A stretch of DNA of 64,000 nucleotides. Source: an uncultured Thiomicrospira sp. Its GTDB lineage: Bacteria; Pseudomonadota; Gammaproteobacteria; CAKMZV01. The notes below the pieces were generated by a model. It did no database searches. It was not told the origin of the DNA and saw only the letters and a program-made list of their open reading frames with translations. Position numbers and translations under genes: made by a program. The stretch spans positions 960,001-1,024,000 of the forward strand of contig OZ239628.1 of NCBI GenBank assembly GCA_965195345.1. Direction: 5' to 3'. Below, in pieces: positions 54,281 through 64,000 of the stretch (its first letter is position 1; the number at the start of each line of letters is the position of its first letter).

Positions 54281-55440
54281 ACAGCCTCCCTTTGCAGTTC
54301 TTGTGCGAGGATGGCGGATTTCAACTTCTTTAATTCGTTTGTTTTTTTTACTTCTACTAGCAAGGTTTTTTCAACGTGTATTTTTGCACTCACCACCATA
54401 TTAAGCAGTCTCTCAAGCATTTCTCCATCTGGGCACGGAATGGGTATTTCATTGAGCTTTTTTTGGTTAAGTTTTGGTTGTGCCATACCTGAGATATACT
54501 GCGATAGATTTGTAGCATTCAGATATAGCTCAACCCATTTTTGTAATTTGGAATTTTCAAATTTCAGCACATGAGCATGATTGTTTACCCAACATTTTCC
54601 GCTTACAGAAAAAGCTATCGGATACGCCCTCATAAGCAGGTTTGCACCATCTTCAGAAATAAGCAGTAAATCATCGTCAAAGATGTACTCCTCAACATAA
54701 TCTACAATTCCGCTAGCGCCATAATACGGCACGTTACCAACTACTCGTTTAGATTTTGTAATTGGAATTCGCTTTGCATCTAGATTTTCAGAGAGATGCG
54801 ATAGATTTTTGATTTCCCACCGATACAAATCATTATTTAGAATTTCACGCATTATGCCCGACGACAAATTAGTATAGTTTGAGATTTTATCGTCTGTAAT
54901 TTTTATCGTTTCATCAATCTCAGCAAACGCAGCATCCAGTTTGGCTACGATGCGTTGTTGTTCTGCGAGAGGGGGGAGTGGAACGACAATCTCTTTGTAC
55001 TGGGCAAGCTGAAGGTTTCGTATGCCTGTTGAGTGACGCTGCATAGGTTCTGTCTTTCCACTAAGATAAAGGAAGTGTAGAAAACGATGAAGAAACTGTG
55101 CATCAAGCTCACTTTCGTCAAATACCCTTAGTCGCGCTGTGAAGTTGCTTAGTGAGTATGGAATATCTGCCGATGCATTATGAATACAAACTCTCCCAAC
55201 TGGCGTTTTATCACCACCACCAGACTTTTCTAAGATGATGTCATGCTTTTTAACTTCTCTCTTTTCTAGTTGCTTTGCTTCAACATCAAGTTCAACAACC
55301 TCTGAGTAGTCAAGTTGTCCAGAAGAAGTAAAGTTAGTATTACGTAATACTAACGCTTTAACGAATGGTTCCTTCTTTCCTTTCCATAGTCCGCTTTGAA
55401 TGCCACATAACTCCGATAGCTTTTTTATCTTCCACATCAC
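54277..55440 (-). CDS. hsdS: Type I R-M specificity subunit
   Basis: Two TRDs separated by PLPPLAEQQRIVAKLD; C-terminal LKSAIL. Confidence 0.92.
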   Translation of the reverse strand: MMWKIKKLSELCGIQSGLWKGKKEPFVKALVLRNTNFTSSGQLDYSEVVELDVEAKQLEKREVKKHDIILEKSGGGDKTPVGRVCIHNASADIPYSLSNFTARLRVFDESELDAQFLHRFLHFLYLSGKTEPMQRHSTGIRNLQLAQYKEIVVPLPPLAEQQRIVAKLDAAFAEIDETIKITDDKISNYTNLSSGIMREILNNDLYRWEIKNLSHLSENLDAKRIPITKSKRVVGNVPYYGASGIVDYVEEYIFDDDLLLISEDGANLLMRAYPIAFSVSGKCWVNNHAHVLKFENSKLQKWVELYLNATNLSQYISGMAQPKLNQKKLNEIPIPCPDGEMLERLLNMVVSAKIHVEKTLLVEVKKTNELKKLKSAILAQELQREAV

Positions 55441-56888
55441 AGCAACTCCTTGATTGCCTGCAATGCTTGTGCTGCTTGCACATCTAACTGTTCAATCTCT
55501 GCGATGATTTCTTGCGGTGTACGATTATCTACTTCTTCAACGGTGTTTGGATTGTTAACAGTTAAATCCCATGTATCTTTGTTTACCGTTGCTCCATCGA
55601 CCAACCAGCTGTTGTCACTCAGCTGTTGCGTTTTAGCCATCTCAACAAATTCAGCTAAATCCTTTTCATTGAGCGGGTTTGTCTTACCCATATTTCTGCC
55701 AACATTGAGTTGGTAGTACCAAATGTTCTCAGTGGGTTTGCCCTTTTCGAAAAACAAGACAACCGTTTTAACGCCTGTGCCAATAAATGCTCCACTGGGT
55801 AAGTCCAGCACAGCAAACAGATTGCATTCTTCGAGCAACTGCCTACGCAGTGCAACGCTGGCATTGTCTGTATTGCTGAGAAAGGTGTTTTTAATCACAA
55901 TGCCACAGCGTCCGTTTACTTTGAGCATCTTTATAAAATGCTGCAGGAACAGATACGCTGTTTCGCTGGTGGCTACTGGGAAGTTTTGCTGTACTTCTGC
56001 ACGCTCTTTTCCGCCGAACGGGGGATTAGCGAGCACAACATCCACTCTATCTTTTTGCTGTATGTCAGCAATGTTTTCGCCAAGCGTATTTGTGTGCACA
56101 ATGTTGGGCGCTTCAATGCCATGCAGTATCATGTTCATTATGCCAATCACGTAGGCTAATGACTTTTTCTCTTTGCCATACAAGGTATGTGATTGCAGCT
56201 GCTCATACTTGCGAGCACTAAGTTCCTTGCTGCGCATGTGAGAGTACGCTTCACATAAAAATCCTGCACTACCCACAGCACCGTCATAAACAGTTTCACC
56301 GATAACTGGATTAATAACTTTGACAATGCTTTTGATGAGTGGACGAGGCGTGTAATATTCGCCGCCATTCCTGCCAGCATTCCCCATGTTCTTGATTTTG
56401 TCTTCGTACAAGCTGCTAAGCTCATGCTTGTCGTCATTGCTGAGAAAGCTGAGTTCGTCTATTTTGTTGATTACTTCACGCAGGGCATAGCCACTTTGCA
56501 ACTTGTTGCTTATCTCGCTGAAGATTTCGCCGATTTTGTATTCCAGCGTATTGGCACTGTCTGCGGATATTTTGAATTGCTTGAGATAGGGAAACAATTT
56601 GAAGTTAACAAACTCGCGTAAATCATCGCCTGTGAGTGCTGCGTTGTGATCCAGCTTGCCATCGCTGGATTTGGGTGTTGCCCAAGTTTTCCAGCTAAAT
56701 TCATCACTCAGTATCGAGTTGTAAACTTCACCATTGAGCGATGCGGAGTTGGCTTTTTCAGTCTCGTAGTCATCCAAGTACTTTAGAAACAGTATCCAGC
56801 TTGTCTGCTCGATGTAGTCAAGCTCACTGCTGCAACCAGCGTCTTTCCATAAAGTATCATCAATATTCTTAAACGCTGCTTCGTACAT
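55437..56888 (-). CDS. hsdM: Type I R-M N6-adenine methyltransferase
   Basis: GEYYTPR, YDGAVGSAGFL, NPPF. Confidence 0.95.
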   Translation of the reverse strand: MYEAAFKNIDDTLWKDAGCSSELDYIEQTSWILFLKYLDDYETEKANSASLNGEVYNSILSDEFSWKTWATPKSSDGKLDHNAALTGDDLREFVNFKLFPYLKQFKISADSANTLEYKIGEIFSEISNKLQSGYALREVINKIDELSFLSNDDKHELSSLYEDKIKNMGNAGRNGGEYYTPRPLIKSIVKVINPVIGETVYDGAVGSAGFLCEAYSHMRSKELSARKYEQLQSHTLYGKEKKSLAYVIGIMNMILHGIEAPNIVHTNTLGENIADIQQKDRVDVVLANPPFGGKERAEVQQNFPVATSETAYLFLQHFIKMLKVNGRCGIVIKNTFLSNTDNASVALRRQLLEECNLFAVLDLPSGAFIGTGVKTVVLFFEKGKPTENIWYYQLNVGRNMGKTNPLNEKDLAEFVEMAKTQQLSDNSWLVDGATVNKDTWDLTVNNPNTVEEVDNRTPQEIIAEIEQLDVQAAQALQAIKELL

Positions 56889-56906: not shown

Positions 56907-57053
56907 TTACTTTGGTTTTCTGCCTTCGGCAATTGAGCCTTTTAGCATCCCAGCAGTAAAGCCGAACTCTTTACAAAGTCGTTTCACTTCTTTCAATGCA
57001 TTAGCACGTTTGTTTTTCTGTGCTTTAACCATCTGCTGCTGAATTGCTTTCAT
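56907..57053 (-). CDS. Small protein resembling an H-NS N-terminal oligomerisation domain
   Basis: Below the ORF-track cutoff: MKAIQQQMVKAQKNKRANALKEVKRLCKEFGFTAGMLKGSIAEGRKPK, ending 18 nt upstream of hsdM. Confidence 0.55.
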   Translation of the reverse strand: MKAIQQQMVKAQKNKRANALKEVKRLCKEFGFTAGMLKGSIAEGRKPK

Positions 57054-57508
57054 TTCAGCTTTCAACTTGTCATGTGATTTTATCAGACACTTACTTTGAA
57101 TAAGTGTCTGTGACAGCGTATAGGTTTGTTATTAGGTTGAAAAGCACGTTTTCTACGTCTAATGTTATGTGTTGTAATTAGGCAAAAGTATTTCAGCGTC
57201 TCACTATGCCAGTCCGTTTACTTGTCAATCACATAGCCATACGGCTACAAACCGTACAGTTTTGACGGTTTTAACTATACAGTAACTTACTGGTTTTTTG
57301 ATTCGGTAACGGTGGTTGTGGACGGATAGGTGTAAAGTCAGTTCGTTCTGTGTCTTTTTTTAAGTGCCAAGTTTGCTCGCAGAGTTACTATGATTTCCAG
57401 TAGTCACACGTTTGTGCAACATTCTGTGTAACTGCATGAGAAAACCTCAATTAAAGCAACGATTGATTTTTTTATGTAAAAGTAATGTGCAAGTTAAATA
57501 TAGTTTAA

Positions 57509-57700
57509 AATCAATGACTTAAAATATAAAAGCTATTCCCACTCAATGAGTAATACTCTCTGAAACCCTTTATTTAAAGGGGTTTTAAAAAAGTTTGTAT
57601 TAACTTTGTATAAGAGAGGTTTCATTTTCTACCCATTGTTGTATGACTATACCTATAACCTAGGTGTTTCATACAAAGTTTGTATCAGAAAATTATACAT
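57509..57700. repeat. att-like site copy 1: IHF box, duplicated guaA 3' end, palindrome, arm repeats
   Basis: AATCAATGACTTA (57509-57521, matches WATCAANNNNTTR); CTATTCCCACTCAAT = I-E-W-E-stop of guaA; aaagtttgtattaactttgtat; tttcatacaaagtt. Confidence 0.85.
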
Positions 57701-57834
57701 GTTTTGTTCACTGACTCACTGTGTCAGAAGATAAAATACTGCCCTGGTCTAACTGGTTTTTCTTGGTTGATTCAATGAAGATTAAAGTGAAAAAGGAGAC
57801 TCAATCCTACCTTATCAATTGCGAACCGATTGTT

Positions 57835-58035
57835 TCAGCAACAAGCATCTCCCTCTTGAATAGGCGGACAAACAACATCTCCAAAAGAACAAAAAATACA
57901 GCAATCACCCTTATTAGGTTTTAAAAGTGCTTTACAATTTGCACATTCATAAAAAAATTGACAACTATTAGTCGGCATTGTTTCAGTTTTTTTATATCCA
58001 CAATTAGGGCAAGTTATAGTTGAGTTTAATTCCAT
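57835..58035 (-). CDS. GDCCVxC-domain small Cys-rich metal-binding protein
   Basis: ITCPNCG...MPT.SC..FYEC..C...LKP..GDCCIFCS.G...CPP. Confidence 0.85.
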   Translation of the reverse strand: MELNSTITCPNCGYKKTETMPTNSCQFFYECANCKALLKPNKGDCCIFCSFGDVVCPPIQEGDACC

Positions 58036-58038
58036 TTA

Positions 58039-58419
58039 TCAACACCTTTTAGATATGGGTTTTATCACATCAATTATTGCCACAAAAGACATCAACAAAA
58101 GTGCCACATAAAAAATCGTCCTACTAAATGCAAATTCCCAAAAGACATAGAGAACTAAAAAAATCACAAACGGACTTGTAGTATTTAAAAAACCACGCAG
58201 ATGGTTTTTATGATTAAACCACGAATATAAATTTGAAACCAAGACTACTAAAGTAAAAAAAGGTAGCAGGTAGTTAATTGCAATACTCTCAAAAACAGAC
58301 AGAAATCCCAACCCCATAACAGAAGCAAGTGAAATGAATGCAGGAAAACATGCGGGACAACTTAAAGCAGCAATCCAAATACCAACAGTTCCTATTTTAT
58401 CTGTATGAAATCTTTTCAT
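58039..58419 (-). CDS. merC: MerC-family mercury transporter-like protein
   Basis: DKIG..G.....CPACFPA......GLGFL with 4 TM segments. Confidence 0.75.
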   Translation of the reverse strand: MKRFHTDKIGTVGIWIAALSCPACFPAFISLASVMGLGFLSVFESIAINYLLPFFTLVVLVSNLYSWFNHKNHLRGFLNTTSPFVIFLVLYVFWEFAFSRTIFYVALLLMSFVAIIDVIKPISKRC

Positions 58420-58427
58420 TATTGCAC

Positions 58428-58590
58428 TCCCACTTAATGAGTTACCCTCTGAAACCCTTTATCTAAAGGGGTTTTAAAAAAGTTTGTATTAACTTTGTAT
58501 GAAACCATGTCCTTGAAACAGTTGTTATTACTGCATTTGTGCGATTTTAGTGTGTTTTCATACAAAGTTTGCATGACAGAATTATAACAT
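58428..58590. repeat. att-like site copy 2
   Basis: TCCCACTTAATGAG...ctctgaaaccctttatctaaaggggttttaaaaaagtttgtattaactttgtat is near-identical to about 57537-57611; perfect 14-bp inverted repeat at 58491-58504 / 58556-58569. Confidence 0.88.
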
Positions 58591-58695
58591 ACAATTATTT
58601 CCAAAAACCCCCTTATCAAAATCCAAACTCAATGAGATACTGAAAGAGTAGTTTCAAAAATCATTACATTTGTAGTGTCTTAAAAACTTAATTTT

Positions 58696-58703
58696 TATAA
58701 ATA
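58696..58703 (+). promoter_or_regulatory. TATAAATA, matches the T4-type late promoter consensus
   Basis: Exact octamer 5 nt before the ATG at 58709; could be chance in AT-rich DNA. Confidence 0.4.
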
Positions 58704-58708
58704 CTTTT

Positions 58709-59293
58709 ATGAACTTTTTAAAAGAGAATTTTCAGTCTTCTAATGAACTTGTTAAACAAGTCATGATGCAAGATATACAACGAAGAAGTTATCAAAGATT
58801 TCTAAAGACATTCAAAACTGACAATATGTTATTCCTCGTATTGCACTTGAATAATTACCTGTCTAAAGAACAAAATCCATTTGAGATACAGAAGTCGTTG
58901 AAGAGATTTTTCAGAAGAGTTGATAACAAAGTGTTCAGTAGTAAATCAAACAAACGACTTCAAAGATATGTTGTTATTGAGAACTTAAAGAAACAGAAAC
59001 ATCAGAAAAGACTTCACTCTTCTAGAGTATCTAACAGAACTCATGTTCAGATTGCGATTGATGTTCCTAGACATCTCACAAAGAGTAAGTTGAGAGATAT
59101 CATTCGTAGTTCTTTAGATAATCAGATATGCAATCTATCTCATGTTGATGTTGTTGATAGATACGATGAACTGATTGATTACAACACGAAAGATATGTAT
59201 TCAATCAAACCAACAGATACAGATATAACATTTGATGAAGTGAACTCATACAGAGTAAAGAAGAGAGTTCATGAACATCGTGAAGTGCATTAA
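58709..59293 (+). CDS. Putative HUH-superfamily rolling-circle initiator-like protein
   Basis: Motif order FLVLHL (I), THVQIAI (II, HUQ variant), YNTK (III, YxxK); no Gly or Trp. Confidence 0.55.
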   Translation: MNFLKENFQSSNELVKQVMMQDIQRRSYQRFLKTFKTDNMLFLVLHLNNYLSKEQNPFEIQKSLKRFFRRVDNKVFSSKSNKRLQRYVVIENLKKQKHQKRLHSSRVSNRTHVQIAIDVPRHLTKSKLRDIIRSSLDNQICNLSHVDVVDRYDELIDYNTKDMYSIKPTDTDITFDEVNSYRVKKRVHEHREVH

Positions 59294-59340
59294 CTTGCCG
59301 AGAATCAGTCTTTACTGACTCTCAAAATGTTTATTTCGTT

Positions 59341-59577
59341 ATGAAGTGCATTGAGTTGCATTGTGATTTTTATTGTCTGAATAATGAGAAAAGAGATATG
59401 ACAATTGCAAAGAGTAATAGATGCAGAGAACTGTTAAAAGAACTAGAACAGATTCAATACGACTATCTAGAAACCAACATGATTAGACTGACAGAAACAG
59501 AGAAACGATTCTACAAACATCGTAAGAAGATTATTCTCAAATATGTGTCAGATTATCTAGATACACAAAACGCATAA
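59341..59577 (+). CDS. Hypothetical protein (start may be ATG 59398)
   Basis: ORF in the element's + strand gene block. Confidence 0.55.
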   Translation: MKCIELHCDFYCLNNEKRDMTIAKSNRCRELLKELEQIQYDYLETNMIRLTETEKRFYKHRKKIILKYVSDYLDTQNA

Positions 59578-59600
59578 ATAGTAGTTAGAGATTAAATTAA

Positions 59601-59993
59601 ATGAAGACTTCATCAAAAATCATTCTAGAGAACATTAGAATTGATAAACAATTAAGAATAAATGTTGCACTCGTTAACGATAAACAATTAAACACATTAT
59701 TTAATGATATAAATCATCACATTGATGAATTAAATAATACCAAGATGAATGAACACGAGAAAATATTCACTCTTGAAACATTGATAAAAGATTTAATTGA
59801 ATTTAATAACAAAACTTTCTTCAAACTTTATACAACTACTAATGAAAAAGTGCGAGAAACAGAACGAGTAAAGAGATTAAAGTCATTTTTAGACATCAGA
59901 AAAGATGTTGAAGATGAATTACCTGTTCCTGATGATGATGAAGATGATGTTCCTTCAATTCCACCTGCATTAAAGAGAAAATTAAACCTATGA
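59601..59993 (+). CDS. Hypothetical helical protein with an acidic C-terminal tail
   Basis: 130 aa, ending DDDEDDVPSIPPALKRKLNL; stop overlaps the next ATG (ATGA). Confidence 0.65.
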   Translation: MKTSSKIILENIRIDKQLRINVALVNDKQLNTLFNDINHHIDELNNTKMNEHEKIFTLETLIKDLIEFNNKTFFKLYTTTNEKVRETERVKRLKSFLDIRKDVEDELPVPDDDEDDVPSIPPALKRKLNL

Positions 59994-60193
59994 AACCAAA
60001 AAGATATTCACAAAATCCTATTCAAGTCAGAATACACAATGTTCAAGAAGACACTTTGAATAAAATAATGAACGATACTGAATATTGCACTAGAAAGAAT
60101 ATTATTTCTAAAAGTGATGCAGTTCGTTCTGCATTATTTTCATTATGTAAAGACTACGAACAAGAGAAATATAATCAGTTAATACAGTCATAA
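59990..60193 (+). CDS. Putative ribbon-helix-helix DNA-binding protein
   Basis: IQVRI strand...L..I...SKSDAVRSAL helix pattern (CopG/Arc-like). Confidence 0.5.
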   Translation: MKPKRYSQNPIQVRIHNVQEDTLNKIMNDTEYCTRKNIISKSDAVRSALFSLCKDYEQEKYNQLIQS

Positions 60194-60275
60194 CTCATTA
60201 CATTAAAACCACTTAATATAGTCGTGTGCGTTCGGGGAAAAGTCAGTCTTAAACAGTTAATACATTGAGAGTCAA

Positions 60276-60404
60276 ATGAACGAAAAAGTCATTCAGAAAC
60301 AACTAGAGTCGTTTGAGAAACAGTTTGATAAGACTGTTCAAGAGTTCAAAAGTCTTCTAAAAGTATTCAAACAAGAATTAAAGAACTCACAAAAGAACAG
60401 ATAG
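60276..60404 (+). CDS. Small coiled-coil-like ORF, 42 aa
   Basis: Manual translation MNEKVIQKQLESFEKQFDKTVQEFKSLLKVFKQELKNSQKNR. Confidence 0.45.
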   Translation: MNEKVIQKQLESFEKQFDKTVQEFKSLLKVFKQELKNSQKNR

Positions 60405-60496
60405 AGTTGTAAATCAAACTAAAGTCTAATTTACACTTTTTCTAGAAAGTGAAATGTTGATTTTAATAGTGTTTCAGAGTGTCTATTTGCAGAAAA

Positions 60497-61084
60497 TTAG
60501 ATAGACATTGATTTACATTGTTGTGCGACTCTCGTATGACTGATTCCTACTCTATCTGCAATCTTTCTATAAGATTTACCTTTCTTTCTTAACTCCATGA
60601 TTTGATATTCAATATCTTCATCAACAACATCTTTTCTTCCAAATTTAACACCATCTTTCAATGCTCTTTTGATTCCGATTATCTGTCTTTCTCTTCTCAT
60701 GTTGTTTTCTAACTCTGCAAAGATTCCAACCATATAGAAGAAACTACTTCCCATAGTTGTAGATGTATCAATTCCTTGTTTGTAAGAATAGATATCAATG
60801 TCTAAATCTTTGAGTTGTGATAGAACAGACACAAGATGTTTCATGTTTCTTCCTAATCTATCTATTGACCAAACGACTAACTTATCAAATTTTTTTCTAG
60901 ATGCATCTTTCAACATTCTCTTTAATTCATCTCGTTCATTAACACCTTTAGTTCCACTTATCGTTTCATCATATTCTTCTACTACAATCCAATCATTTCG
61001 TTCACAGATTTCGTAGAGTTCTAGTCTTTGATTTTCAGTAGTCTGATGACTTGTTGAACATCTCATTAAAATTGCAACTCTCAT
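60497..61084 (-). CDS. Small serine recombinase (resolvase/invertase) with C-terminal HTH
   Basis: MRCST..Q....Q, SG, DRLGR, FAELE, ERQ..G, GKSYRKIA..VG. Confidence 0.92.
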   Translation of the reverse strand: MRVAILMRCSTSHQTTENQRLELYEICERNDWIVVEEYDETISGTKGVNERDELKRMLKDASRKKFDKLVVWSIDRLGRNMKHLVSVLSQLKDLDIDIYSYKQGIDTSTTMGSSFFYMVGIFAELENNMRRERQIIGIKRALKDGVKFGRKDVVDEDIEYQIMELRKKGKSYRKIADRVGISHTRVAQQCKSMSI

Positions 61085-62376
61085 ATATCTTCTCCTTTCT
61101 CTTCAACTGTTCCTTCTCTTGTGATTGAAAACGATTTCAATGCCTGTGTTCTCATAGACTCTTCTTTGTATTTCAGATAAGTGTCTTCAATGTGTTTGAT
61201 ACTTGTTCCTGCAAGTTTTGAAATATCAATGATATTCACACCACTCATAACACGCATTGTTATTCCAAAGTGTCTTAACGAATACCAAGTCAGATTTCTT
61301 TCCTCTTTCCACTCTTTAAGACTGATACCAATTCCAGTCATTAAATTTCTCCAATGTTTTGCATACTTCTGTGCAGAAATTGTTGCAGTTCCATTTACAG
61401 ATGCAAAAACTAAATCATCTTTACCTGTGAACTTCTGTCGTTTCTTCAATCTTTCAAAATACTCACCACCTCTACAGATGATTTTTCTATTTGATTTAAC
61501 TTTTGATGTTTCTGCACGAACATTGATATGTGCAAGAAGATGTTGTTTCTCATTTTCATCAAAGACTCGTTCAATCTTTTGCACATCTTTCCATTTCAAC
61601 TGTCTTAATTCCCCTACTCTCATGCATGAGTTAGATGAGATGAGAACATAATCTCTGATTATCATTCGTTCTAATTGTTCTGATTCATCAGTATTGTTCT
61701 TATCTGCAACATAACTTCTCATGAAACGAATCAGATTGTCGTATTCTTCAAGAGTGAATGTATCTCTTTTTCCAACATCATCTTTTCTGATACTGATTTT
61801 CTTAAAATCAAATTCATCAAAATGAGATATGTTCAAACGATAAAGAAACTTCATCATGTGATTGATTGTTGATTGTTCATTTCTGATTGTGATGTCAGTT
61901 GCATCTTTGAGTTTTTTTCTCAATCGTTGATATTCAAAGATTGAACTTCTATCAAGTTCTGCAACTTTCGTATTCTTACCAACGATTTTCATGAAGTGTT
62001 TTAACTGTGTGCGAATCGTAGTCCAACGACCTTGAACGATTGTATTTCCGATGTCTTTCTCTCTGTCTTCTAGATACAAATCAATTGCAGTTTCAACAGT
62101 CATTCCAAAGACTTTCTTTCCTTGTTTTACATTCGTAGATAACTCCATTCCTAACTCTCTTCCACGAATGAGTGCAGTTTCTAAATCTTTTGTTCTTAAT
62201 GACTTACGATAGTGTTTCTGTTCTTCCTTGATATACATTCTGAACTGAAAAACATCACCACTCTGTTTGACTCTAAACACTTGTGCGAGTCCATCTAGAA
62301 TGTCGTGTTGACTATGAAGATTATTACCTTTTGATACTCTTTTTTTTCTCATTTTTACAATGTTTCGTAATAACAA
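61081..62376 (-). CDS. Tyrosine recombinase/integrase (start may be ATG 62352)
   Basis: CMRVGE (R), SK (K), YSLRH, AGTS, DTY (Y); N-terminal RKSLRTKD arm-binding-like region; adjacent to the guaA 3' end. Confidence 0.9.
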   Translation of the reverse strand: MLLRNIVKMRKKRVSKGNNLHSQHDILDGLAQVFRVKQSGDVFQFRMYIKEEQKHYRKSLRTKDLETALIRGRELGMELSTNVKQGKKVFGMTVETAIDLYLEDREKDIGNTIVQGRWTTIRTQLKHFMKIVGKNTKVAELDRSSIFEYQRLRKKLKDATDITIRNEQSTINHMMKFLYRLNISHFDEFDFKKISIRKDDVGKRDTFTLEEYDNLIRFMRSYVADKNNTDESEQLERMIIRDYVLISSNSCMRVGELRQLKWKDVQKIERVFDENEKQHLLAHINVRAETSKVKSNRKIICRGGEYFERLKKRQKFTGKDDLVFASVNGTATISAQKYAKHWRNLMTGIGISLKEWKEERNLTWYSLRHFGITMRVMSGVNIIDISKLAGTSIKHIEDTYLKYKEESMRTQALKSFSITREGTVEEKGEDI

Positions 62377-62412
62377 CAGAAAGTTTGCACTTATCTTTGT
62401 ATCTACAGAATC

Positions 62413-62442
62413 ATTATACTATGAAAATACAGTCAAAATCAA
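62413..62442 (-). promoter_or_regulatory. Putative sigma70 promoter of the integrase, overlapped by an IHF-consensus site
   Basis: TTGATT-N18-TATAAT on the - strand; AATCAAAAGTTTG at 62437-62449 on the + strand. Confidence 0.5.
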
Positions 62443-62518
62443 AAGTTTGTATGAAGTTTGTATGAAAGAAATCCCTTAAAATCAACACTTTCAGATGATT
62501 TTGTTATTCCCACTCTAT
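62443..62518. repeat. guaA-proximal att site: tandem 11-bp arm repeats, IHF-like box and core
   Basis: AAGTTTGTATG x2 (62443-62464), AATCAACACTTTC (62480-62492), TATTCCCACTC (62505-62515). Confidence 0.8.
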
Positions 62519-64000
62519 TGTTGCTGGAGGCTTGCCTGAAATGTCGTAAACTACTCGTGCCACTTCGGGGACTTCATTGATAATCCTATTTGATACGTAT
62601 CCAAGTAAGTCATATGGTAAGTGCGCCCAAACAGCGGTCATAAAGTCAACAGTCGTAACTGCTCTCAAGGCAACAACGTAGCCAAAACGTCGAGCATCTC
62701 CAACAACACCTACGGATTTAATCGGCATGAAAACGGTAAATGCTTGTGATGTTTTTTCGTAATAATTTTTTTTATGTAATTCTTCAATAAAAATTGCGTC
62801 GCATCGTCTAAGAATGTCAGTATACTCTGCTGTTACTTCACCAATAATGCGCACGGCTAATCCCGGACCAGGGAAAGGATGGCGGTGCAATAAGTCTTTA
62901 TCTAGCCCTAAATGTGCGCCTATCTTGCGGATTTCATCTTTAAATAATTGGCGCAAAGGTTCGAGTAATTTCAAATTTAATTTATCGGGTAATCCGCCTA
63001 CGTTATGATGCGATTTGATGGTTTTTGCATTAGCGTTTGTATTGCCAGCAGATTCAATAACATCAGGATAAATAGTACCCTGAGCAAGGTAACTTATTTG
63101 TTTTTTTTCTTTTGCGTAGTCTTCAAAAACTTCGATGAAACTGCGTCCGATGATTTTACGTTTTTTTTCAGGATCTTCGACTCCTTTAAGCGCGCTGATG
63201 AATTTTTCTTCAGCATTGATGAAGTCCACTTTGATTCCTAGGAGATTGGCAAATAGTGCTTTAACTTGTTCTTCTTCGAACAAGCGGAGCAAACCATTGT
63301 TCACAAAGACACATTGCAGTCGATCACCGATGGCTTTGTGTAAAAGTAGCGCTGCAACTGAAGAATCTACGCCTCCAGATAACGCTAAGAGTACGTGTTC
63401 ATCAGCTTTAATTGTTTGTTGTAGATTGTTGATGATGTCCGCAGTAATATCGCTCGTTTTCCAATGGTTATCACAGCGGCAGATTTGCAGGGCAAAGCGT
63501 TCAAGAATGTTTTGCCCTTGAATAGTATGTGTAACCTCAGGATGAAACTGGATGGCGTACAGGTTTTTCTCTATATTGGCCATTCCTGCAAGAGGGCAGG
63601 AATCGGTCGAAGCCATGCAAACAAATCCAGGTGGCAATTTGGTTACTTGATCTCCGTGGCTCATCCAAACATCTAATAAGCCATGCCCGTGCTCATTGTG
63701 TCTATCTTCTATGTCTTTCAATAATGGAGTGTGTCCGCGCGCTCGAACTTCAGCGTGTCCGTATTCATGTTTAGCTGAGGATTTTACAGCGCCCCCAAGT
63801 GTTTGAGCCATTAACTGCATGCCGTAACAAATACCAAGTATAGGAATATTCAGTAGGAATAATCCTTGAGGAGCAGATAGTGATTGATCTCCATAAACCG
63901 ATTCGGGTCCTCCAGATAAAATAATCCCAGCAGGGTTGAAATCTTTTATTGAATCAATGGTGCAGTTGTGCGAATACACTTCGCAATAAACACCAATTTC
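62504..64000 (-). CDS. guaA: GMP synthase (start lies beyond the window end)
   Basis: [42 protein letters not shown]. Confidence 0.97.

Follow-up and report, generated by a model that had tools for sequence, protein, structure and literature searches.

In the footprints that APOBEC3G leaves in retroviruses and small DNA viruses, a dinucleotide-specific activity on one single-stranded DNA strand results in a strand-asymmetric scarcity of its target (CC on one strand, GG on the other). Target loss is also the outcome of restriction-site avoidance, and in the case of Type III enzymes with their one-orientation sites, as for phage T7 and EcoP15I, the resulting bias is strand-specific. A comparable escape from a nuclease operates at the RNA level, where ACA-less mRNAs, from which a short word has been eliminated by synonymous and non-synonymous choices, resist MazF. 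Among integrative elements, the satellites of filamentous phages (TLC, RS1 and phiRSM with its resolvase-like integrase) measure 4-7 kb, carry an HUH-type initiator and small open reading frames (ORFs) opposite the recombinase, and integrate site-specifically beside a conserved gene; we know of no compositional void reported for them. The SEs of Gammaproteobacteria have a different core gene set, with two integrases plus other genes. A single-stranded circular intermediate produced via tyrosine recombinases has been proposed for them, as stated in the abstract of their description. Finally, the VEIME elements are small (about 5 kb), integrative and abundant in marine bacterioplankton.

The element described here lies in a window of 64,000 nucleotides (nt), the whole stretch of DNA analysed (contig OZ239628.1 of assembly GCA_965195345.1, from an uncultured Thiomicrospira sp.), and all coordinates are positions in that window. 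It is an integrative element of ~4.06 kb, bounded by 58442 and 62518, at the 3' end of guaA, and is probably self-replicating. In itself it is ordinary, comparable to many islands and to the integrative satellites of filamentous phages: a replicon of small size that has integrated, by means of a tyrosine integrase, at the end of a conserved gene. Nevertheless, the + strand of this DNA is almost devoid of GG. Because the integrase is encoded on the - strand, this is the same as an absence of CC from the integrase-sense strand. The resemblance to APOBEC3G footprints is limited to the one-strand loss of such a target, since the element resides in bacteria with no known deaminase, its depletion is nearly absolute and old, it lacks a C>T/G>A signature and its proteins have been remodelled to omit whole amino acids. 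Restriction-site avoidance (PMC6286503, a survey cited in excerpt) concerns motifs of 4-8 bp, and not a two-base word whose loss costs Pro, or Gly and Trp. In contrast to ACA-less mRNAs, where the rule follows gene direction, here it follows the DNA strand through genes of both directions and spacers. As regards the elements, the satellites share the size, site-specific integration and gene arrangement, but coat, Zot-like and packaging genes are missing here, no helper is known and the Rep assignment is weak. Unlike the SEs, whose abstract mentions no dinucleotide void, this element combines a single tyrosine integrase with a single serine recombinase. The VEIME paper, supplements aside, mentions no guaA, resolvase or proline, and "dinucleotide" only within "nicotinamide adenine dinucleotide". 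The initial annotation of the sequence knew of no described element with this property, and full-text searches of the literature, supplements excepted, returned no description of such a one-strand void or of such an element. The phenomenon is real, reproducible and apparently unreported, and the elements that display it form a new marine integrative family. It works like target avoidance, but in a new and extreme form: the avoided word has two bases, the rule is strictly confined to one strand and almost complete, and entire amino acids have been given up.

The void itself can be delimited with precision. On the + strand of 58472-62525 (4054 nt) GG occurs 3 times against 78.5 expected from base composition (ratio 0.04), as the initial annotation had noticed by eye, and all three occurrences fall within a single GGGG; on the same strand CC occurs 79 times against 118.8 expected. 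The nearest GGs outside the void are at 58470 on the left and 62526 on the right. The two resulting GG-free gaps measure 2290 and 1764 nt, whereas the runner-up within the window has 250 nt. Across the whole genome (1,920,693 nt) no gap of any of the 16 dinucleotides is longer than these two; the third GG gap there is 680 nt, and dinucleotides other than GG do not exceed 546 nt. The five + strand ORFs (194+78+130+67+42 = 511 amino acids, aa) contain no GG and hence no Gly or Trp codon, while no CC, and hence no Pro codon, occurs in the genes of the integrase (431 aa) and of the serine recombinase (195 aa), as had been claimed from the translations. When the proteins were kept fixed and codons were drawn from host usage 1000 times, a mean of 46.7 offending dinucleotides was obtained, with a minimum of 26, whereas 0 are observed. 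Therefore, the rule acts on the DNA, beyond the choice of amino acids, and the word lies far below expectation with silent sites included, as in an avoided target; proteins free of Pro or Gly that still kept synonymous and inter-codon GG, which would have spoken against the initial annotation, were not what was found. In the spacers (608 nt in total) there are likewise just 3 GGs, all in one run. This void is thus a DNA-level rule that reaches silent sites, codon junctions and spacers, and the resampling together with the GG-poor spacers rules out codon usage or amino-acid economy as its cause. Of the two GGGG runs, the internal one had been correctly recorded, but the run at 58468-58471 had been placed outside the element and is in fact inside its conserved hairpin. 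As a separate observation, the + strand also shows a CC gap at 60209-60546, and 309 nt of it (60238-60546) are without GG or CC on either strand, with an estimated significance that is marginal. This stretch takes in ORF5, the spacer between the convergent genes and the 3' end of the adjoining gene for the Gin-like recombinase; an invertible segment would need both strands clean, and neither flanking inverted repeats nor inverted variants were seen at 60238-60546.

The same void recurs throughout a family of related elements. A search at E <= 1e-5 returned 626 integrase homologues; among the best 120, 42 are without Pro and the others have at most 12. For the serine recombinase, Pro is missing from 112 of the best 120 homologues and occurs once in the remaining 8, and neither Gly nor Trp is present in 24/41 homologues of a Rep-like protein. 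At the DNA level, loci of related integrases (labelled L002, L003 and so on, integrase oriented +) were gathered from named marine metagenome-assembled genomes (MAGs; 4 loci) and from marine metagenomes (80 loci); they are partly redundant, and L005-L007 are near-identical to the window element and not independent of it. The integrase gene is complete in 83 loci, window counted in, and in 29 of these it holds <= 3 CC, while its GGs number 34-142. In all 29 depleted loci the purged strand is the integrase-sense strand, in hosts whose G+C ranges from 30% to over 60%; relatives come from SAR86, Porticoccaceae, Rhodobacteraceae and marine metagenomes. The depleted elements differ in gene content and the void covers whole elements, as manifested by the integrase-sense CC and GG counts of L062 (6074 nt; 1 and 191), L017 (3538 nt; 0 and 92), L023 (4612 nt; 4 and 219), L052 (4152 nt; 3 and 185), L003, from a Rhodobacteraceae MAG with flanks of over 60% G+C (5359 nt; 7 and 317), and L075 (7485 nt; 33 and 565). 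Integrase-sense genes of the relatives have no Pro and antisense genes have neither Gly nor Trp, so that in them as well it is the DNA strand, and not the direction of a gene, that the rule obeys, in agreement with what had been proposed for the window. Among these proteins, L062:1861-4869 encodes a proline-free polypeptide of 1002 aa with a BT4734-like N-terminal domain and a ResIII/AAA helicase region.

In a maximum-likelihood tree built from 69 integrases by a quick search, depleted members are scattered and ~9 changes of state are needed, a figure perhaps one too high because L050 (integrase with 0 CC) is labelled normal; L080 is a long-branch, probably chimeric ORF. As judged from this tree, the depleted state has been gained and lost repeatedly across lineages and hosts. 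The integrase of L042 has no proline and yet 20 CC in its gene, silent CCs being back as expected once the constraint is lifted. The relatives L013-L016, L020 and L032, whose integrases are 65% and 55% identical, show ordinary CC/GG counts apart from a serine recombinase gene that is still CC-free (458 nt, CC 0, GG 26), and these loci look like mosaics or lineages in relaxation.

The specificity of the avoidance was examined in 17 pooled segments (60,221 nt), picked as CC-poor and therefore informative on specificity and not on depletion; the same selection applies to the residual-CC tally (20 segments) and to the fourfold-site tally. In the pool CC amounts to 74 against 2577 GG, every CC-containing trinucleotide is depleted 23- to 64-fold, and other di- and trinucleotides are asymmetric by at most ~1.7-fold. 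The avoidance is thus specific to bare CC on one strand. The residual CCs in depleted segments (~0-2 per kb) are polymorphic among near-identical copies and share no position or context, and five of the 20 segments (two of L002, plus L017, L027 and L070) have none.

The explanation that we favour, to which we assign a probability of about 45%, is that one strand of these elements exists at some stage as unrepairable single-stranded DNA (ssDNA), in which adjacent C's, or G's on the complement, are attacked. A strand rule that holds across both gene directions, the sparing of neighbouring DNA and the per-site cost together make an ssDNA stage the best explanation. We infer this stage, the strand exposed and the nature of the agent as follows. 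The element would spend part of its life cycle, likeliest rolling-circle replication and/or transfer, as a lone strand with no partner for repair, and an agent would act on two adjacent identical bases of it. Each site would carry a small fitness cost, so that sites would be purged singly, even at the price of proteins free of Pro or of Gly and Trp; the few polymorphic residual CCs fit such a per-site cost. Candidate agents would include a nuclease specific for a dinucleotide in ssDNA, a deaminase whose product is then removed by uracil excision, an enzyme that modifies bases, and chemical lesions, for example a GpG intrastrand crosslink. In most rolling-circle replicons the displaced strand is the Rep-sense strand. 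By analogy with them, the exposed strand would be the GG-free one and the hazard GpG-specific, either an enzyme or a chemical lesion; if the integrase-sense strand were the one exposed, the hazard would be CC-specific, a nuclease or a deaminase with subsequent uracil excision. Aldehyde-derived GpG-specific intrastrand crosslinks have been documented in single- and double-stranded DNA (bioRxiv 10.1101/2022.03.22.485364, in excerpt). Of the two GGGG/CCCC runs that are tolerated, one is part of the stem of a conserved hairpin and would be double-stranded even in ssDNA, which fits protection by pairing. The sparing of neighbouring DNA is provided by module B, an integrase-less unit next to the element and between the same attachment (att) cores, which holds 24 GG and 35 CC in 872 nt and shows no depletion. 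Since it occupies the same place in the same orientation, the pressure must hit the autonomous element and not any DNA resident at guaA.

The initial annotation had left open selection or mutation on one strand, and of the two it is selection that is supported. Pure mutation pressure, in which a CC-specific cytosine deaminase of the APOBEC3G kind repeatedly hypermutates one strand with no selection involved, would account for the dinucleotide and strand specificity, both typical of ssDNA deaminases, and for the excess of GA (1.56x) and AG (1.20x) over expectation on the window + strand. We nevertheless consider it very unlikely. The marks of a deaminase footprint (C>T changes, Pro turned into Ser or Leu, an excess of T) were not found: in the integrase alignment the proline-free members have K (312), D (183), E (165), S (157) and A (91) in the Pro columns, so that S and L are not the main replacements, and a young clade (L062, L070 and L072) has GCN where its sisters and outgroups have CCN, a transversion. 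The sisters L060 and L066 show private CCs that resemble T>C gains. On the integrase-sense strand of the pooled segments A exceeds T (19,465 vs 17,629), and CT and TC are rarer than AG and GA. Besides, all ORFs are intact and catalytic residues are retained despite the void. Replacement spectra and base composition therefore rule out a recent burst of C>T hypermutation. On the CC-free strand, C is found more often than any other base at fourfold sites free of neighbour effects (224/754), so that single C's are not avoided, and this excludes general C avoidance, whether by spontaneous deamination or by the dC-specific nuclease of T4 DenB type that had been put forward as a candidate. Another early suggestion was that a unique GG/CC signal, for instance an origin, nick or packaging site, is required and all other copies have been removed. 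In its favour, the only GGs of the window element are two GGGG runs, one of them beside an att core. However, the existence of two such runs, the lack of any common position or motif among residual CCs and the five segments that have none speak against it, and HUH or recombinase signals are longer than two bases, so that purging a dinucleotide would be needless; the idea is most improbable. As far as sequence comparison can tell, then, the constraint is site-by-site purifying selection against CC on one strand, switched on and relaxed repeatedly.

Such selection could also be exerted on double-stranded DNA (dsDNA), and the early statement that dsDNA mechanisms "cannot" explain the rule was too strong, as a frequent nicking enzyme or one-strand marks would also confine sites to one strand. 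With a frequent strand-specific CC nickase, sites kept on one strand would produce nicks that are never opposed and hence no double-strand break; if instead a restriction system responded to a modification on one strand, or to a hemi-modification, the transferred strand would stay unmarked. The logic resembles that of phage T7, whose EcoP15I sites lie in one orientation. Strand confinement, sharp limits at the element ends and a per-site purge with few tolerated sites are equally expected, and enzymes with dinucleotide motifs exist, an example being phage DpdA with its strict GA motif (PMC10484667, in excerpt). Nevertheless, these hosts are not known to possess a CC nickase or a system directed at CC, although none was sought here, and either strand could be purged by such a mechanism, while 29/29 depleted loci purge the integrase-sense strand, an argument weakened by shared ancestry. 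Moreover, the unpurged state of module B indicates that resident dsDNA feels no pressure. A dsDNA mechanism is thus unlikely. Distinctly unlikely, too, is a structural or RNA requirement, by which the ssDNA, or a full-length RNA read through from guaA, would have to be free of G-quadruplexes, i-motifs, strong folds, or RNase or Rho targets. The void does follow the direction of guaA transcription, from attL almost to the distal hairpin, and a metatranscriptome contig of 3534 nt spans 59001-62533 at 7.7x the depth of the flanking host DNA. This contig, which covers genes of both directions and carries no strand information, may stem from expression or from carry-over of DNA. The integrase has a promoter-like site of its own, and TC (UC in RNA), the other Rho-type dimer, is not avoided (3935 in the pool). 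As to quadruplexes, four nearby G-tracts are needed and isolated GGs are harmless, so that a residual density of 0-2 per kb is far below what such a requirement would impose; on this argument from residual CC density, G-quadruplex avoidance is judged insufficient.

For the ssDNA stage that we prefer, independent evidence was sought in the replication module. ORF1 has 10 homologues among 1.84 billion representatives (E <= 1e-3), and in their alignment H46, V89-I90-E91, H112, Y158 and K161 are invariant. H112 belongs to an HUH-like H-V-Q motif, which reads H-V-H in one homologue, and Y158 and K161 are placed as in the YxxK-type motif that harbours the catalytic Tyr of HUH enzymes. ORF1 has no Pfam or PHROG match; among its Atlas neighbours are clusters in which 14% of the members carry PF23343 (REP_ORF2-G2P). 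Its AlphaFold model has a mean confidence score (pLDDT) of 60.8, and the best Foldseek rows are HUH proteins, at a weak E of 0.015-0.06. Relatives carry positional analogues of ORF1 (L009, L010 and L036; L054, L068 and L075) in which the motifs F-T-H-H-I-T, H-F-H-I-L-L and Y-A-T-K are clearer; H-F-H and H-I-H are their versions of the HUH metal-binding motif. Y171 is invariant in the 18 sequences of one alignment of such Rep-like proteins, one analogue matches PF23343 weakly (E 0.0068), and in one modelled analogue (pLDDT 64.7) HUH nucleases are again the best, weak, fold matches. Both models weakly match (E 0.015-0.3) TnpA of the IS200 type, RepB of pMV158 and parvovirus NS1/Rep. Rep-like genes are antisense to the integrase in the window and in several CC-free relatives. 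ORF1 is thus a putative HUH-type rolling-circle initiator, on the basis of these motifs and of low-confidence models, and a rolling-circle stage, which the initial annotation had proposed, is plausible for many members of the family.

Several results weigh against an ssDNA stage brought about in this way. Profile comparison gives no proof of homology among the three Rep-like families (hhalign probability 0.4% and 0.1%), a sequence search of the PDB with one Rep-like alignment retrieved nothing relevant, and the fold matches do not go beyond E >= 0.015 in Foldseek or Z <= 7 in VIA-align, which for ORF1 returned nothing but generic folds, on models of low confidence. An HUH-like gene is not universal either, since L062 has the primase/helicase-like protein (BT4734-like_N plus ResIII) instead. 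Neither a conserved hairpin-loop nick motif nor an origin was recognised in repeat and fold scans. No circular junction or excision joint of the element was found in contigs or reads of 4 runs, one raw-read run of which barely covered the element; the two joints listed in those runs were short-sided and came from other contigs. An ssDNA form, a nick site and an origin were not seen, contigs and reads being unable to show ssDNA. The internal GGGG lies outside any stable hairpin, so that protection of this run by pairing can be discarded. Element and Rep are absent from viral, phage and plasmid collections, which lends no support to a packaging or plasmid stage: relatives of the integrase and ORF1 were found neither in 2.9 million IMG/VR contigs nor in 50,697 phage records, and family scans of the element recognised no packaging genes. 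ssDNA viromes are poorly represented in virus collections. Finally, no candidate agent has been identified, and the host genome was not searched for one. Two enzymes that might have been considered fit poorly, according to the parts of the sources cited. DarT1, a G-modifying ssDNA enzyme, has no known consensus motif (PMC11543638) and is discarded as a GG-specific agent for that reason, and SsdA is reported to be context-independent (PMC12494967).

How enzymes accommodate the void can be seen in the two recombinases. The integrase matches PF00589 with an E of 9.2e-6 and 26.0 bits, just below the curated cut-off of 27.1, and the same family is precomputed on many of its homologues. Tyrosine recombinases have the catalytic pattern Arg...Lys...Arg-His...His...Tyr, and among 27 aligned homologues R253, K292, R368, H369 and Y400 are invariant and H395 near-invariant. 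The serine recombinase has its closest solved relatives in the Gin invertases (E 2.4e-21), with helix-turn-helix families at 1.7e-4 in its C-terminal part. Its active site reads "rcSTshQ" (Gin, "rvSTndQ") and the DRLGR motif is retained. The replacement of family-typical prolines described in the initial annotation is borne out by alignment to Gin (4m6f, 3uj3), where tDRPgL has become nERDeL, IDTSSPMG has become IDTSTTMG and GGRPP has become FGRKD.

The organisation of the locus is collected in Table 1. The ~15-nt core formed by the guaA end is present at three junctions, at one of them in degenerate form, as expected of att sites, and among related loci guaA lies directly upstream of the integrase in 28 ORF matches. 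A 12-nt repeat has two copies adjoining guaA and three at the far end (two direct, one inverted). It is kept in L002, L005 and L010, and because relatives with related integrases but different cargo retain it, these repeats are probably arm sites of the integrase. Homologues of ORF3 and ORF4 occur in L009, L010, L002, L017 and L036, and in opposite orientation in L013-16, L020 and L032. The internal GGGG shares a 25-nt similarity (72%, D7) with guaA that is no better than chance families, so that an origin from guaA or an att-like role was discarded. In 57000-63000 no Rfam family was found at E <= 0.1, and a terminator scan yielded none.

Table 1. Features of the integrative element and its surroundings at guaA (positions in the window)
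Feature	Position	Strand	Remarks
Outer att core	57533..57547	-	original guaA end with stop codon; host DNA resumes on its left
Module B: MerC-like protein, 126 aa, and Cys-rich protein, 66 aa	57549..58420	-	integrase-less tandem unit with its own distal arm and hairpin
Degenerate att core	58425..58441	-	junction of element and module B; compared with cores 62504-62518 and 57533-57547
Distal end	58442..58476		conserved hairpin 58449-58476 with GGGG 58468-58471 (CCCC on integrase-sense strand)
Inverted arm-type repeat copies	58491..58569		stem of 14-17 bp, 45-nt loop (I17); upstream of ORF1; DNA fold z -2.7, -3.1
ORF1, 194 aa	58709..59293	+	putative HUH-type rolling-circle initiator; no Gly/Trp
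Four small ORFs, 78/130/67/42 aa	59341..60404	+	no Gly/Trp; no significant family match
Internal GGGG	60234..60237	+	no stable hairpin (fold z +1.15, +0.56); no equivalent in relatives
Small serine recombinase, 195 aa	60497..61084	-	resolvase/invertase type; no proline; PF00239 E 2.2e-38
Tyrosine integrase, 431 aa	61081..62376	-	no proline; gene CC = 0, GG = 34
Integrase-proximal arm	62377..62503		two tandem 12-nt arm-type repeats (62446-62470); repeat families D1, D17
Promoter-like site for integrase	62442-62413	-	10/12 positions matched
attL core	62504..62518	-	last guaA codons (I E W E stop), ~15 nt; recurs at other junctions
guaA (GMP synthase), 3' part	62504..64000	-	integration target; ORF ends ...PPATIEWE; runs past window end

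The neighbourhood suggests repeated use of the same site. In module B the MerC-like protein matches PF03203 (E 4.7e-13), and the segment 57537-57611 is a 92-93% copy of the distal end of the element. The segment 58443-58500 reaches 3-18x the depth of the element in metagenome contigs and is also seen with other flanks, and loose ends of metagenome reads place the att core beside it. One contig (L007) carries element and module B together, at 98.4% identity over 4993 nt, and together with metagenome contigs and reads it establishes where the element ends; two same-genus genomes, both without the integrase, have an empty guaA site. The guaA end looks like a hotspot for accreting units. As a side observation, the last seven codons of guaA are without CC in 7/7 occupied sites (window 62504-62524, L002, L005, L010, L036, L055 and L070), whereas the two same-genus empty sites have two CC there; the element may supply the guaA tail. 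About 0.6 kb beyond the island, at 55437-56888, a 483-aa ORF resembles a Type I restriction-modification methylase (NPPF motif, by eye), and further defence-type genes may lie upstream in the window.

Regarding its distribution, the element was detected in at least 14 marine metagenome DNA runs of several studies and in two metatranscriptome libraries. Its integrase was found in 0/2 same-genus genomes and 0/40 of the other genomes searched, and the element was not found in phage and plasmid collections. Two relatives with the family integrase, L034 (6984 nt) and L083 (8936 nt), have identical contig ends (123 and 99 nt) and may be circular extrachromosomal forms; neither is strongly CC-depleted, and L034 also holds a homologue of the Rep-like protein of L054. 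When the ORFs downstream of the 83 integrases were clustered, no accessory gene was common to all CC-free elements, as a self-encoded agent would be. Non-depleted relatives have, among other cargo, genes for an AAA ATPase, for a glycosyltransferase-like protein and, at L040:4421-6190, for a DruA-like (Druantia) protein with a ParB-like N-terminus; the family can include defence genes in its cargo.

Taken as a trait of mobile DNA, the void points to a strong selective force, specific for strand and dinucleotide, on elements of abundant ocean bacteria (SAR86, Porticoccaceae and Rhodobacteraceae), and we know of no bacterial defence or DNA chemistry that accounts for it. We suggest tentatively, and at somewhat less than even odds, that it is the footprint of an undescribed CC/GG-recognising ssDNA activity, common among marine bacterioplankton or the phages that infect them. 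Such an activity would be the prokaryotic equivalent of restriction by APOBEC3G-type enzymes, or else a novel nuclease or base modifier with dinucleotide specificity for ssDNA. A guild of small integrative replicons would escape from it by clearing its target from the strand that is exposed and by evolving anew enzymes that do without proline or glycine. Natural, functional tyrosine and serine recombinases free of Pro, a Pro-free helicase-like protein of 1002 aa and replication proteins free of Gly and Trp constitute useful cases for protein evolution and design. A one-strand dinucleotide void is in addition a computable signature, applicable to any genome or metagenome, for elements with a single-stranded stage, and for which strand is involved. 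The trait is gained and lost among close relatives, so that comparing such pairs and their hosts makes its cause directly testable, and the agent, if found, could bring to light a novel mechanism of immunity or damage directed at ssDNA.

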